A DNA stretch of 21,637 nucleotides, taken from IMG/VR virus record IMGVR_UViG_3300037558_003019; one strand, 5' to 3'. The DNA is from a virus. Below are positions 7,645 through 19,548 of this stretch, one piece after another (position 1 is the stretch's first letter; each line of letters opens with the position of its first letter). The translations under genes and the position numbers were made by a program. The notes under the pieces are model-generated. The model ran no database searches. It was not told where the DNA came from and saw only the letters and a program-made list of their open reading frames with translations.

Positions 7645-7678
7645 AAACCTAAATACTTTCAGAACTGTCTAATAAGTC

Positions 7679-7686
7679 TTTTAAAT
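7679..7686 (+). promoter_or_regulatory. TATA-like box upstream of the ORF/tRNA insert
   Basis: TTTTAAAT 26-29 nt upstream of ATG 7705/7708, consistent with a leaderless start. Confidence 0.5.
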
Positions 7687-7704
7687 TCATAATCAAAGAA
7701 ATTT

Positions 7705-7962
7705 ATGATGTCATTCACGATATGTGGAGAGCTCGAAAGAGCAGTTGAAGAGATGACTCGTATTATCAGAGATTTTTCAGAACCCCATCCGAGAGACTCT
7801 CCTGAAGCTCTCATGATTCTCGTTTACCGTGATCCAGAGAGCAACCATAAATTCGTTCTCAAATTTCAGATTCTTTGGAACATTCCGGAGAGCTACAAGA
7901 TGAAGAATAAAGCTTCGGATTTCATGAAGATCTTTCGGGAGTTGTGGCATAGTGCAAATTGA
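7705..7962 (+). CDS. Hypothetical protein
   Basis: ORF with an upstream TATA box, overlapping the next ORF. No motif recognised. Confidence 0.55.
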   Translation: MMSFTICGELERAVEEMTRIIRDFSEPHPRDSPEALMILVYRDPESNHKFVLKFQILWNIPESYKMKNKASDFMKIFRELWHSAN

Positions 7963-8173
7963 TATTGATGAATTTCGGGTCTATCTCTGGAAGAAATACA
8001 ATCCTGTGAAAGCTGCAGACATCATACGTGCGTATAAAACCCTCATGAGACACTTCAAAGAGCTCCCAAGCGAGGAAGAGATCGATCAGAAATTCAAAAC
8101 AATCGCCTTGAGAAACAGATACAAGAGAGTCTTGAAAGAGATCGAGGAATATTTGAGGAGCCCCGTAGTGTAG
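7952..8173 (+). CDS. Small helical protein resembling the tyrosine-integrase N-terminal SAM-like domain
   Basis: IDEFRVYL...IRAYKTL..HF...EEEI...RNRYKRVLK..EEYL pattern. No catalytic domain. The last 15 nt overlap tRNA-Gln. Confidence 0.45.
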   Translation: MQIDIDEFRVYLWKKYNPVKAADIIRAYKTLMRHFKELPSEEEIDQKFKTIALRNRYKRVLKEIEEYLRSPVV

Positions 8174-8353
8174 GCCGGTCAATCATTCTGGGCTTTGGGC
8201 ATCTACGGAGGGGATGTACCGTTGACCCTGTAACACAAATTGTTCCGGTACCCAACTGTGGTTTCGGGCGTATGCCCGTTGCCATAGCTGCCTCCTGTCC
8301 CCTCCGTGGATGGAGGAGACCCAGAAACCTCGGTTCGAATCCGGGCGGGGCTA
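8159..8353 (+). tRNA. trnQ: tRNA-Gln(UUG) with a 120-nt intron at 37/38
   Basis: Acceptor AGCCCCG/CGGGGCT (A1-U72, typical of archaeal tRNA-Gln), discriminator A, anticodon stem CTGGG/CCCAG, loop CT-TTG-G|A, T-arm CTCGG-TTCGAAT-CCGGG. No encoded CCA. Confidence 0.93.
8199..8318 (+). ncRNA. Bulge-helix-bulge tRNA intron, 120 nt, predicted three-way junction
   Basis: BHB: bulge GGG (8197-8199), 4-bp helix CUUU/GAGG, bulge AGA (8317-8319), 16-bp outer stem 8200-8215/8297-8312, and two internal hairpins. Confidence 0.88.
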
Positions 8354-8437
8354 TCCGATGCATCGGAGCGTGCCGTGGTGAGGCGGTCCCGAGGTATCGA
8401 TGAAGGAGGGTGGAGGTCGGGGCACGCCAATCCCTTA
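8354..8437 (+). ncRNA. Inter-tRNA structured RNA 1 (14-bp palindrome plus predicted kink-loop hairpin)
   Basis: TCCGATGCATCGGA palindrome 8354-8367; stems GCGTG/CACGC, CCGT/GCGG and TCCCGA/TCGGGG; K-turn-like C-GAT-GA ... G-GA-G. Confidence 0.55.
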
Positions 8438-8513
8438 GCCGGTGTAGCATAGTCTGGTTGAATGCGGGGGATTTGTAATCCCCAGATCGTCGGTTCAAAT
8501 CCGACCACCGGCT
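8438..8513 (+). tRNA. trnT: tRNA-Thr(UGU)
   Basis: Acceptor GCCGGTG/CACCGGC, discriminator T, D-stem GCAT/ATGC, anticodon stem GGGGA/TCCCC with loop TT-TGT-AA, T-arm GTCGG-TTCAAAT-CCGAC. No encoded CCA. Confidence 0.95.
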
Positions 8514-8585
8514 TTCGGGTGGTAAGTCCCGCTGAAACGATGACAGCTCCGTAAGAGTGGGGGAGGAGTAAGCGGGGTCACCCGA
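8514..8585 (+). ncRNA. Post-tRNA structured RNA 2 (predicted kink-turn hairpin)
   Basis: Stems TCGGGTGG/TCACCCGA and TCCCGCT/AGCGGGG; K-turn-like AC-GAT-GA-C / G-GA-GT; apical C-GTAA-G GNRA loop. Confidence 0.55.
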
Positions 8586-8588
8586 TTA

Positions 8589-8635
8589 AGCTGGGTGCAA
8601 TAAGACCTCTCTGCATAAGAACTCTGCACCCAGCT
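8589..8635. repeat. 11-bp perfect inverted repeat AGCTGGGTGCA/TGCACCCAGCT closing the RNA cluster
   Basis: Arms at 8589-8599 and 8625-8635, with a 25-nt loop containing two ATAAGA copies. Confidence 0.8.
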
Positions 8636-8668
8636 ATTTCAAAAATACTCGAGGAGGATTAAGAAAAA

Positions 8669-9286
8669 ATGAGAGTGGTCTGGATCCTAAAAAATGCGTT
8701 CGGGAAGCACATCATGAAAAAGCATGTTGATGCTATTTTAAAAACTCTCGAAGAACTCAAAGATGGGGATGAACTCATCATGAACTTTGATGGTGTCATC
8801 TCGGTTGATACGGTAGTTGCTCGTGAAATTGCGAGGTTCATGAGGATACACGAGGAGATTGATTTTGATATTATCAACGCAAAAGAAACAATTATGAATC
8901 TAATTGAAAAAGAGCTCGAAGTGAGTGAAAATCCGAGAGCTGAAGAGCTCTGCGGGAGACGTCCTTACGGTACAGCACTTTACGAGCCATGGGAACTCGG
9001 TTATGCATGTCCGATTTGTGGAGCAGACGAGCGACTTCATTGGAGTGAATACAACTTTTTCCTATGGTGTGAAAACTGCAATATCGATATTCCATCAGTT
9101 CTCTGCGTGAAATACGGGAGGCCAAGACTTGATGATGAGCCTCTGGATCCAGAAACGAGGGTAAAGATTCAAACTGAGATTTTTCTCGACTGCATTGAAG
9201 ATGTAAAAAAAACAGGTCCAGAGCAGTCAAAAGTTTCCAAAATAATCCTACAACCACCCGAGAAATCCGAGGAGTATGCTGTATAA
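8669..9286 (+). CDS. STAS-like N-terminal domain fused to a zinc-binding domain
   Basis: LIMNFDGVISVD resembles the 2869 STAS-like motif. The C-terminal half has CPIC...WCENC. GAGGAGG RBS. Confidence 0.6.
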   Translation: MRVVWILKNAFGKHIMKKHVDAILKTLEELKDGDELIMNFDGVISVDTVVAREIARFMRIHEEIDFDIINAKETIMNLIEKELEVSENPRAEELCGRRPYGTALYEPWELGYACPICGADERLHWSEYNFFLWCENCNIDIPSVLCVKYGRPRLDDEPLDPETRVKIQTEIFLDCIEDVKKTGPEQSKVSKIILQPPEKSEEYAV

Positions 9287-9387
9287 TGGGTCCACGATGC
9301 AATATTTTTCTGGATATTTATATAAGATTGACGAAAAGATAGGCGTGGAGAGCCAAAAATTTATAATTTTCCATCCAACCATTATTT

Positions 9388-9828
9388 ATGAAGTTCAATT
9401 CTTGTATTTTCGGGGAAATAGAGAGAATAGTTGGAGAGGATTACAGATATGAGCTCGAAAGAATAATCAATAAAGAGACTGAGAGAACATTCACAGAGCT
9501 CGAATGTACAGCGTCTAAATTAAAAATGAGTGAAAATGTTATGGAATTAGCAGATTACCTGAATTACGTCTCAGCTGTATATTCACTAACACAGAGAAAA
9601 ATTACTGATAAAATTTGGAAAAGATTCTGGGGAACTCTAATACGACATGGGATCAGAAAAATAGACTTATCCGAATATGTCGGGTTTTTTCTTAGAGGGA
9701 AGTTGAGAGATAAATTAAATGAAATTGTAGAAGAGGCTAAACAAACTGCCAGACACTTCGGAGTAGAGTCTATAACAGTCTCTATTGGTTTAACTGGGGT
9801 TACATTTTCATTTACTATCAAGATCTAA
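9388..9828 (+). CDS. AT-rich accessory hypothetical protein
   Basis: Has its own canonical promoter (CAAAAA-TTTATAAT, about 9354-9367). Codon usage is visibly different from the structural genes. Confidence 0.6.
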   Translation: MKFNSCIFGEIERIVGEDYRYELERIINKETERTFTELECTASKLKMSENVMELADYLNYVSAVYSLTQRKITDKIWKRFWGTLIRHGIRKIDLSEYVGFFLRGKLRDKLNEIVEEAKQTARHFGVESITVSIGLTGVTFSFTIKI

Positions 9829-9850
9829 CAGTTTTTGGTATTATGTAGGT

Positions 9851-9872
9851 ACTCAGAGACCTCGGTTCGAAT
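9851..9872 (+). repeat. Partial copy of the tRNA-Gln 3' half (20/22 identity to 8319-8340)
   Basis: ACTCAGAGACCTCGGTTCGAAT versus ACCCAGAAACCTCGGTTCGAAT. Confidence 0.8.
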
Positions 9873-9891
9873 ACACTTACTATTTAAAAAA

Positions 9892-10098
9892 TTAAATTGA
9901 TTTACGAGATGCAAGAGTTGCACCAATCCCTATAATAACCATGGTAATGAGGAAGATTGTCCAGAGATTAGATTTGAATTCAGGTGGAACTGTTACAGCT
10001 GCAGGGGAATTAAAAATCATTGCAAGTATAATCGCTGTAAATAGAATCAACAGAACTCCAGCGATAACCCCCGCAGGACTATCCCTCACAGCTCTCAC
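9892..10098 (-). CDS. Small two-TM membrane protein
   Basis: Two hydrophobic helices around a Pro-containing loop. A GGTGA RBS suggests the true start may be the GTG at 10089. Confidence 0.6.
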   Translation of the reverse strand: MRAVRDSPAGVIAGVLLILFTAIILAMIFNSPAAVTVPPEFKSNLWTIFLITMVIIGIGATLASRKSI

Positions 10099-10191
10099 CT
10101 ATAAATATCCATCTTTTAGCATGATAATAAATGTTCTGCTCTTTACACTGATTTTGGAATATTACACGGTGGGTGTGGAAATCAGAACGGT

Positions 10192-10207
10192 TTTTCGGCA
10201 TTATATA
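10192..10207 (+). promoter_or_regulatory. Putative late promoter, copy 2 (TTTTCGGCATTATATA)
   Basis: Ends 23 nt before the portal ATG. Confidence 0.75.
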
Positions 10208-10230
10208 TGAGGATAACGACATAATAATAC

Positions 10231-17832: not shown

Positions 17833-18872
17833 GCGTTAAATACAGCTTCACGAAGGAGGAGCTCGAGGAAGCCTATCGTGAAGCTGGAAGTGTGAGAGGT
17901 GCAGCTGAACTATTAGGCATTCATCACGTAACTTTTCTCAGACATGCTAAGAAACATGGAATTAAGATTCGAAAAATCAGAAATCAGCACGAGAGAGAAA
18001 GACAAAAACAGTTCTTTAAGGTTATCGATCGGAATATCGGAGAACTGGATTTTGATGAGATGTTTGAGGCAATCATCAGAGTACAGAAGATGCTCGATAA
18101 ACACGACATCATGCAGGAGAGAGCAACCGTAAACGTAAATACAGACTCTCCGGTTCTCCTCATTCCAATTGGCGACATTCACATAGGAAATCGTTATGTG
18201 GATTATGAGGCTCTTAAGAGACACATCGAGATTCTATCAAAAGCTGAAAACGTTTTGATCATCCTGAACGGCGATCTCGTTGACAACTACAACACGTATT
18301 CCCACGACGGAGGAAGTCATGAAGCTGTGATGCCTCTACACATGCAGAAAGAGTTCACACGCAAGTGCATCGATAAGATCAAAGATAAGATTGTAGCGAT
18401 GGTCCATGGGTGTCACGAAGCGTGGAGCTGGAATTCTGATAACTTTGATTTCATTGATTATCTCGCAAGGGAGGGGAATGCTGTTTATCTCGGTCATGGA
18501 GGAGTTCTTCGGCTTAATATTGGAGGAGTAGAATACAAAGTTGTTGTGAGACATAAATATCGCTACAATTCGAGCTTTAACATGACTCATACATGTAAAA
18601 GACTCCTCGAGCAATACGAAGATGGGGATATTGCAATCGTCGGACATAATCATTCATATGCAATCGAACTCACGAAGATCAGAGGAGAGGAGAAAGTACT
18701 CATCAGGCTTGGATCATACAAGATTCATGACTGGTACACGATGAAGTGGGGATACAGAGATGCAGATCCAGTGATGCCAGCAGTGCTTCTGGATCATCAC
18801 GAGAAAAAGATGATGATCTTCAGAGATTTCGAGCAAGGAATCGAGTATATGAGGAGATTTAAAGATGAGTGA
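17829..18872 (+). CDS. HTH plus calcineurin-like metallophosphoesterase
   Basis: N-terminal GSVRGAAELLGIHHVTF HTH; GDIH, GDLVD, GCHE (GNHE variant), RH and GHNH motifs. Confidence 0.88.
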   Translation: MSVKYSFTKEELEEAYREAGSVRGAAELLGIHHVTFLRHAKKHGIKIRKIRNQHERERQKQFFKVIDRNIGELDFDEMFEAIIRVQKMLDKHDIMQERATVNVNTDSPVLLIPIGDIHIGNRYVDYEALKRHIEILSKAENVLIILNGDLVDNYNTYSHDGGSHEAVMPLHMQKEFTRKCIDKIKDKIVAMVHGCHEAWSWNSDNFDFIDYLAREGNAVYLGHGGVLRLNIGGVEYKVVVRHKYRYNSSFNMTHTCKRLLEQYEDGDIAIVGHNHSYAIELTKIRGEEKVLIRLGSYKIHDWYTMKWGYRDADPVMPAVLLDHHEKKMMIFRDFEQGIEYMRRFKDE

Positions 18873-19548
18873 AATCAAACTTTACCTCTCACATGGAATG
18901 GGTGTTAATTCTACTGCACTAATGTTAATGCTCGAAGATTTCGGGATAAAATACGAAGCCGTTTTCGTCGATACGGGTTGTGAGCATCCTGAAACTTATG
19001 AATACTTGAACTATCTCAGAGAACAGGGATATGAGATAACGGTTCTGAAGCCAGATGTGGGGGGGTTTGACAACCTCTACGGCTACTGTAAGCATTACCG
19101 CATAGTCCCAGGGCAATTCACGAGATGGTGCACATATAAATTCAAGATCAAAACGTTAAAGAATTACATCGAATCACCAGCTGTGATGTTCGTAGGAATT
19201 GCATATGATGAAAAACATAGAGCGTTCACAAAACCAGTAAAAAACGGTGTGATAAACGCATATCCTCTTGTGAACTACAGAGTTACACGGGAAGAATGTA
19301 TAAAGATTATAAAAGAACATGGGTTGAAAATTCCGAGGAAGAGCGGTTGCTGGTTATGTCCGTTTGCAAAAAAAGAAGAAGTCAGAGAGCTCTACTTGAA
19401 ACATAGAGAGCTATACGAGAAAAGAAAAGAGATAGAACGGTTGGCTTCAGAACGAGCAGAGAGGGAGATATACCTTAACTGGAAGAAAAAGACGGAAGAA
19501 CTCGCACATGAAGACGTTATAGACATCACAGTATTTTTAGAGGGGTGA
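18865..19548 (+). CDS. PAPS-reductase-like PP-loop protein (viral type)
   Basis: SHGMGVNST PP-loop variant, DTGCEHPETY, RWCT, GIAYDE, YPLV and SGCWLCPF. Confidence 0.85.
   Translation: MSEIKLYLSHGMGVNSTALMLMLEDFGIKYEAVFVDTGCEHPETYEYLNYLREQGYEITVLKPDVGGFDNLYGYCKHYRIVPGQFTRWCTYKFKIKTLKNYIESPAVMFVGIAYDEKHRAFTKPVKNGVINAYPLVNYRVTREECIKIIKEHGLKIPRKSGCWLCPFAKKEEVRELYLKHRELYEKRKEIERLASERAEREIYLNWKKKTEELAHEDVIDITVFLEG

Follow-up and report, generated by a model that had tools for sequence, protein, structure and literature searches.

The DNA analysed here, which we call the window, is a stretch of 21,637 nucleotides from a virus (IMG/VR record IMGVR_UViG_3300037558_003019). At positions 8159-8353 of its plus strand lies a tRNA-Gln(UUG) gene that is split after position 37, and this gene heads a cluster of RNA genes with a tRNA-Thr and a DUF3800-X RNA (Table 1). 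The segment from 8159 to 8584 is the sole sustained GC island in the window. It falls in the interval between the TerL and portal genes (7645-10230), an accessory hot spot that measures 2.6 kb here and contains small ORFs, the RNA cluster and an ORF at 8669-9286, whose product has Cys-rich motifs and gave no Pfam or PHROG match. In relatives the portal gene follows directly after TerL (L058), or a DNA methyltransferase gene occupies the interval (L063).

Table 1. Features of the tRNA-Gln gene and its RNA cluster (positions in the window)
Feature	Position	Strand	Evidence or remark
73-aa ORF	7952-8173	+	last 15 nt overlap the start of tRNA-Gln
tRNA-Gln(UUG) 5' exon, positions 1-37, anticodon UUG at 8195-8197	8159-8198	+	sequence reading; ARAGORN on joined exons
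BHB 5' half: anticodon stem 8188-8192, central helix 8193-8196, 3-nt bulge 8197-8199	8188-8199	+	
120-nt intron at canonical position 37/38	8199-8318	+	sequence reading, fold z -6.0, GC 57.5%
Outer (closing) stem, 5' arm	8200-8215	+	fold
Inner hairpin 1, 6-bp base, large loop	8216-8251	+	z -0.5 alone, not significant
Inner hairpin 2: 7 bp, 2x2 internal loop, 5 bp, GUAU loop	8253-8290	+	z -4.7, 0/200 shuffles as good
Outer (closing) stem, 3' arm	8297-8312	+	fold
BHB 3' half: central helix 8313-8316, 3-nt bulge 8317-8319, anticodon stem 8320-8324	8313-8324	+	
tRNA-Gln(UUG) 3' exon, position 38 to discriminator A	8319-8353	+	sequence reading; ARAGORN on joined exons
Spacer between the two tRNAs, 83 nt, GC-rich	8354-8436	+	insertion relative to L022
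tRNA-Thr(UGU), second gene of the RNA cluster	8437-8514	+	ARAGORN; Rfam 69.4 bits
DUF3800-X RNA	8516-8584	+	RF02984, 49.3 bits against a gathering score of 38.2

The junctions between exons and intron form a BHB of strict geometry at the canonical site 37/38, as an earlier note made from the letters of this DNA had claimed. The 3-4-3 register was read by hand from the sequence: between the two bulges the central helix has 4 bp (C-G, U.G, U-A and U.G), and the predicted cuts, between 8198 and 8199 and between 8318 and 8319, come after the second base of each 3-nt bulge. Moving the cuts by 1-2 nt leaves the sequence of the mature tRNA-Gln identical. The MFE structure computed at 37 C places the central helix two bases out of register, and the one computed at 75 C has 3-nt bulges on both strands and three of the four central pairs formed. 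The 16-bp outer stem (14 Watson-Crick pairs and two G.U pairs) and the hairpins at 8216-8251 and 8253-8290, the latter with its 5-bp top and GUAU loop, were likewise found as claimed. Given the joined exons, ARAGORN reports tRNA-Gln(ttg) and a normal cloverleaf. The pair A1-U72 is present, T-arm and anticodon stem show no defect, and the sole irregularity is a U.U at 13:22. Because of the intron, the gene as it stands goes undetected by ARAGORN, with or without its intron mode, and by the Rfam tRNA model. These features are best explained if the virus carries a functional tRNA-Gln(UUG) gene that is interrupted by a genuine BHB intron of the archaeal kind, and real splicing of 8199-8318 is in our judgement very probable.

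The IMG/VR contig L041 (= L022), whose TerL is 87 % identical, is the closest relative that carries the RNA cluster and the only close one. The 73-aa ORF and tRNA-Gln overlap, which leaves no space for a promoter of the tRNA's own and suggests that the two are co-transcribed. The ORF can be aligned with L041 up to 8100, and its 3' end diverges exactly where a non-homologous segment starts (8101). The spacer that follows tRNA-Gln is 65 % GC (top 0.07 % of genome windows), is absent from L041 and, with 7 nt deleted, is also present in a contig from run X10; its fold is no better than that of its shuffles (z -0.5). The DUF3800-X RNA begins 1-2 nt after tRNA-Thr, so that RNase Z-type 3' processing of the tRNA would free it, and it is conserved in L022 at 61 bits. 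No DUF3800 protein gene lies near the viral copy at 8516-8584. The host has a stand-alone DUF3800-X of its own (G000:C10:37155-37248, 67 bits) and a single DUF3800 protein gene on another contig (G000:C9:231694-232314). The viral copy could mimic the RNA of the host or serve as its decoy.

The window corresponds to G000:C10:153276-174912 (minus strand) within a 1.5-Mb archaeal assembly of 41 % GC. The provirus that encloses it is 34.6 kb long, encodes TerL, portal, MuF, an HK97-type capsid protein and a tail tube, and ends in a perfect 55-bp direct repeat (att) at G000:C10:142100-142154 and 176627-176681, both outside the window. One att copy covers the host tRNA-Leu(UAG) gene C10:142068-142150 from the anticodon loop to the 3' end. 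This gene content and the 55-bp att agree with the description of the tRNA-Gln gene as viral. Host CRISPR spacers gave no match to the provirus. Because the assembly contains no 16S rRNA gene, we infer the placement of the host, an archaeon of the heat-vent type, from relatives of the virus in MAGs labelled Geoglobus or Archaeoglobales and from the relatives of its EndA, which point to Archaeoglobi.

The splicing machinery that such an intron calls for is encoded by the host, where genes for both enzymes named in the earlier note, EndA and RtcB, were found. EndA is a single ORF of 344 aa (L047:751-1785) in which PF01974 occurs twice, and the PDB entries closest to it are the dimeric A. fulgidus enzymes 1R0V and 2GJW (305-313 aa); it is a two-domain enzyme of the Archaeoglobus type and is probably dimeric as well. 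Enzymes of this type are known to accept only strict BHB motifs, which fits the textbook geometry of the viral intron. RtcB (608 bits) is encoded on the same contig as EndA. The host's own tRNA-Gln(UUG) is intronless. Its tRNA-Trp gene (G000:C7:15176-15325) has an intron of ~75 nt with box C and CUGA motifs, the next-longest tRNA intron in the host; this gene was missed by both tRNA finders and was recovered solely with a custom acceptor/T-arm script.

Codon usage gives little reason for the virus to bring its own tRNA-Gln. CAA accounts for 31 % of Gln codons in the provirus against 40 % in the host, and we reject codon compensation as the role of the gene, since CAA is not favoured by the provirus. 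The same figures bear on the proposal that the intron makes the supply of viral tRNA-Gln dependent on, or timed by, host splicing capacity. The one point for such regulated supply is that maturation must go through EndA and RtcB; the codon figures make the need for the tRNA itself doubtful, the sequence has no regulatory sign, and the swapping of inserts between relatives described below would go unexplained. We regard regulated supply as very improbable.

The intron itself stands out in structure and composition. Fold z-scores are -6.0 for the intron alone, -4.9 for the pre-tRNA and -4.7 for the hairpin at 8252-8296, and in each case none of 200 shuffles folded as well. Much of the score of the intron is due to its closing stem, and such a stem is required in every long BHB intron. 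The intron has a GC content of 57.5 % against 42 % for the genome (top 0.3 % of 120-nt genome windows), and the interior without the stem still has 54 % (top 1.5 %). High GC in an AT-rich genome is reportedly, after Klein, Misulovin and Eddy in 2002, a classic mark of structural RNA in thermophiles. As modelled, the insert 8199-8318 would be an orphan, GC-rich RNA with a three-way junction. Reading 8199-8318 through reveals neither box C (RUGAUGA) nor box D (CUGA), in line with the earlier claim that C/D boxes are lacking. The claim of unusual length also stands: the intron has 120 nt, while archaeal tRNA introns range from 11 to 129 nt with medians of 12-25 nt (PMC4090602) and the host's tRNA-Trp intron reaches ~75 nt.

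Searches for relatives of this intron were uniformly negative. The Rfam search that the earlier note proposed gave no credible match in the intron at E up to 10, the DUF3800-X model included; the tRNA that the intron interrupts had escaped the Rfam tRNA model too. By BLAST no homologue was found in 61 relatives, in the whole class (96 genomes), in 401 genomes of the phylum or in a phage collection; the strongest hit from the phylum (G418, E 2.9e-4 per genome) falls in coding-like DNA and is about what chance gives in 401 genomes. The intron is single copy, with no second copy in the host genome, and neither exact nor degenerate pattern scans found it in IMG/VR. A match from one metagenome scan was dismissed as a chance match within a coding region. 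The contigs compared from DNA runs are identical to the window or begin exactly at the 3' exon and are uninformative on the intron. A similarity to DUF3800-X (a shared 10-mer and some 7-8-mers) was rejected because 19 % of shuffles score as well, and the host CRISPR repeats bear no resemblance to the intron. The collections searched, holding no homologue of the intron, offered no homologues with compensatory base changes either. Exon-anchored scans for further tRNA-Gln copies of this virus group returned L041 only, and homologues of ORF 8669-9286 or of TerL led to none.

The comparison of the window with L041 is therefore the most direct view of how the intron evolves. The two are collinear with 75-88 % nucleotide identity, intergenic stretches of 130-230 nt included. 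The spliced tRNA-Gln is 90.7 % identical between them and ~80 % identical to cellular copies, and the tRNA-Thr and DUF3800-X parts are 90-99 % identical. The L041 gene has an intron of 128 nt at the same site, closed by a 12-bp stem and with its BHB intact, which cannot be aligned with the window intron at all; its interior is unstructured (z +0.2) and not enriched in GC. Introns that are unalignable at a background divergence of about 20 % indicate that the interior has been replaced rather than having drifted. Conservation of the intron, for which the earlier note had proposed covariation as a check, was not borne out: the orthologous L041 intron is unrelated and no homologue turned up elsewhere. 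Free variation of homologous introns in inner sequence and structure, which it had named as evidence against its proposal, was found in the form of wholesale replacement, and since replacement is not drift, this variation does not settle the question of function.

Some further differences between the two genomes deserve mention. The tRNA-Gln of the relative (L022:1718-1919) has a C for the near-universal U at position 33, and this C33 is matched by an A-to-G change in the pairing intron strand of the central BHB helix. Its acceptor stem contains a C4.A69 mismatch. The splice motif thus seems to have been kept in L022 though the tRNA body is odd. Two blocks of the window, 9215-10190 and 18864-19538, are missing from the otherwise collinear L041; they hold the ORFs 9388-9828, 9941-10210 and 18865-19548.

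A second swap at the same site was found in another group of tailed proviruses from the same class. At G043:C1:19782-19959 a proviral tRNA-Gln(UUG) has an intron of 106 nt with 3-4-3 geometry, and this intron is a complete DUF3800-X RNA (Rfam, 57 bits) whose basal stem serves as the outer BHB helix. Its fold (z -4.1) is less extreme than that of the window intron (z -6.0). The provirus is distant from the present one, with 24 % identity in TerL and 31 % in MuF. It is syntenic with a provirus in G019: the tRNA-Gln 5' exons are 97 % identical, and the G019 3' exon and downstream flank align with those of G043. In G019, however, the gene (G019:C48:20340-20551) holds an unrelated intron of 140 nt with perfect BHB geometry. 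The G019 gene and its immediate flanks recur identically in two IMG/VR contigs (L097 and L101, the intron being L101:1450-1589). This 140-nt intron has no Rfam match and no homologue, and its structure is weak (z -1.6); its length exceeds the upper limit of 129 nt quoted for archaeal tRNA introns (PMC4090602).

Across the two virus groups, sampled with two to three independent genomes each, there are thus four inserts (106, 120, 128 and 140 nt) that are mutually unrelated, and the BHB and the closing stem are the sole features kept in all of them. The cellular tRNA-Gln genes of class relatives are without exception intronless 73-mers (29 of 29; 28 UUG and one CUG). Intronless viral copies exist as well (L044, L100, L102 and L134). 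The DUF3800-X RNA was found 29 times in the 96 class genomes, and 27 copies lie apart from any tRNA, most of them behind an AT-rich, promoter-like stretch; the two copies linked to a tRNA are both proviral, one inside the G043 intron and the other directly after tRNA-Thr in the window. A tRNA-Gln-like sequence at L098:2976-3040 (IMGVR_UViG_3300002220_006617) has its 5' part joined directly to the T-arm and acceptor end, with no anticodon arm; either a decayed gene or a hybrid att site may lie behind it. Taken at the level of sequence, position 37/38 of tRNA-Gln in tailed viruses of Archaeoglobus-like archaea appears to behave as an exchangeable slot.

An insert of 120 bp with 16-bp inverted ends could in principle also be a MITE-like mobile element that killed the tRNA gene, the BHB being coincidental. 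Such an element would be expected neither as a single copy in the host genome and absent from the 96 class genomes, nor exactly at 37/38 with an exact 3-4-3 geometry that recurs with three other inserts, nor in a gene whose exons still form an intact cloverleaf. We consider this the least probable of the readings, and hardly credible.

Splitting a gene might instead serve at the level of DNA. On the tRNA-intron protection hypothesis (Randau and Soll, reviewed in PMC4090602), the interrupted gene would block integrative elements or recombination with the host tRNA-Gln. The provirus's own att spans a tRNA-Leu from the anticodon loop to the 3' end, the type of target that an insert at 37/38 splits, and protection predicts arbitrary, unrelated inserts such as those observed. 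A short intron would suffice for this purpose, however, and host tRNA-Gln genes that are equally exposed carry none; lengths above 100 nt, the GC excess, the stability and the DUF3800-X payload would all be left unexplained. We therefore hold DNA-level protection to be unlikely.

A stronger competitor is an intron that is spliced and whose insert is passive or selfish, a functionless filler with a stem that only brings the splice sites together at high temperature, its turnover being the result of recombination, or of careless gain and loss at a position where inserts are tolerated. Four mutually unrelated inserts that share nothing beyond the BHB and closing stem, two of them without clear structure or GC excess, are what such filler would look like, as is the lack of any homologue of the window intron; the position-33 change of L022, matched in its intron partner, indicates selection on the splice motif. 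Against this, all four inserts exceed 100 nt where 12-25 nt is typical (PMC4090602), the cellular tRNA-Gln genes of the class do without an intron, and one insert is a complete conserved ncRNA. The window interior without its stem is still 54 % GC (top 1.5 %) and contains a hairpin with z -4.7, and drift cannot yield unalignable introns in genomes that are ~80 % identical. A functionless filler is thus a real possibility, held with distinctly less than even confidence.

The reading to which we give most weight, though it too falls somewhat short of an even chance, is that the spliced intron is an exchangeable payload slot and that the insert is set free as a small, stable RNA of use to the virus. 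That the virus exploits host splicing to make a stable RNA is indirectly supported by the GC content and stability of the intron and by the presence of DUF3800-X at the same site elsewhere. The unstructured L041 interior (z +0.2, no GC excess) and the weak 140-nt intron (z -1.6) count against a payload, for they mean that at least two of the four inserts (those of 128 and 140 nt) do not look like structural RNAs. Further points against it are the lack of any homologue of the window intron in the collections searched, the large share of its z-score owed to the closing stem, and the intronless tRNA-Gln copies of other viruses.

If the insert is such a payload, its release can be outlined as follows. 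The tRNA-Gln, the spacer, the tRNA-Thr and the DUF3800-X RNA would be transcribed as a cluster, probably together with the upstream ORF. The dimeric two-domain EndA of the host would cut the transcript at the two predicted sites, and RtcB would join the exons to a normal tRNA-Gln. RtcB can circularise excised archaeal introns, and it could likewise close the excised 120-nt piece into a circle. Held by the 16-bp stem and the stable hairpin, the excised piece would be likely to persist as a small viral RNA, while the DUF3800-X RNA would be freed by 3' processing of tRNA-Thr. The cluster would then act as a cassette from which several RNAs are released by borrowed tRNA-processing enzymes of the host. 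As to what the released insert does, our guess is a decoy or a regulator.

A more far-reaching version of this idea is that unrelated RNAs, copies of the host DUF3800-X among them, are swapped as payloads into the 37/38 slot, excised and circularised by EndA and RtcB, and then work for the virus as stable effectors, for instance by serving as decoys that draw off RNA-binding host proteins of defence or regulation, with the intron 8199-8318 as the first of a new class of viral ncRNA. We regard this plug-in cassette as doubtful.

Each element of the system has known counterparts. With canonical archaeal BHB introns the viral intron shares the 37/38 site, the strict helix-bulge-helix-bulge-helix, exons that join to a normal tRNA and a host that encodes a dimeric two-domain EndA and RtcB; it differs in its 120 nt, its place in a virus gene and an interior that is swapped between orthologues. 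The box C/D intron in tRNA-Trp of Haloferax, other Euryarchaeota and the present host is likewise a long tRNA intron, and there it is a small-RNA gene released by splicing. The viral intron, in contrast, lacks C/D boxes and conservation, no guide can be recognised in it, and while the tRNA-Trp payload is conserved across species, the payload of the viral slot changes between close relatives. The halovirus HGTV-1 (PMC13532342; PMC8651126) is also a tailed archaeal virus that has a tRNA gene with an intron, but the HGTV-1 paper states only that one viral tRNA gene has an intron and describes no long structured payload or swapping. The tRNA-Gln(UUG) of G043 agrees with that of the window in tRNA identity, splice site, bulge geometry, tailed provirus and host class; there the payload belongs to an Rfam family, whereas here the intron is an orphan RNA and the DUF3800-X sits after tRNA-Thr. 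Metazoan tricRNAs (PMC4536317) are similar in being long, stem-closed tRNA introns that are excised by an endonuclease, circularised by RtcB and able to accept foreign payloads; they are eukaryotic and cellular, and circularisation, which has been demonstrated for them, is a prediction for the viral intron.

Thus BHB introns, the payload introns of tRNA-Trp, circular tRNA introns and a haloviral tRNA intron were already known (PMC4090602, PMC4536317, PMC13532342). In the literature we came across no account of one tRNA with an intron slot that is long, swappable and specific to viruses. The link between the two virus groups and the swap pattern emerged from this analysis, and the window intron is an orphan member of the set.

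The usual view of BHB introns is that they are short and interrupt a gene passively; the one classic exception is the box C/D guide carried by tRNA-Trp. The introns of the viral tRNA-Gln copies described here measure 106-140 nt and are swapped as a whole between close relatives, and one of them is a conserved ncRNA. Standard tRNA finders missed the gene in the window entirely, so such cassettes are probably under-counted. The system also offers a handle on the unexplained DUF3800-X RNA, which these viruses carry without the protein gene and embedded in contexts of tRNA processing. If the inserts are payloads, they would constitute a natural counterpart, in viruses of prokaryotes, of the tricRNA expression trick, and archaeal viruses would be making stable, possibly circular RNAs without promoters or processing enzymes of their own.
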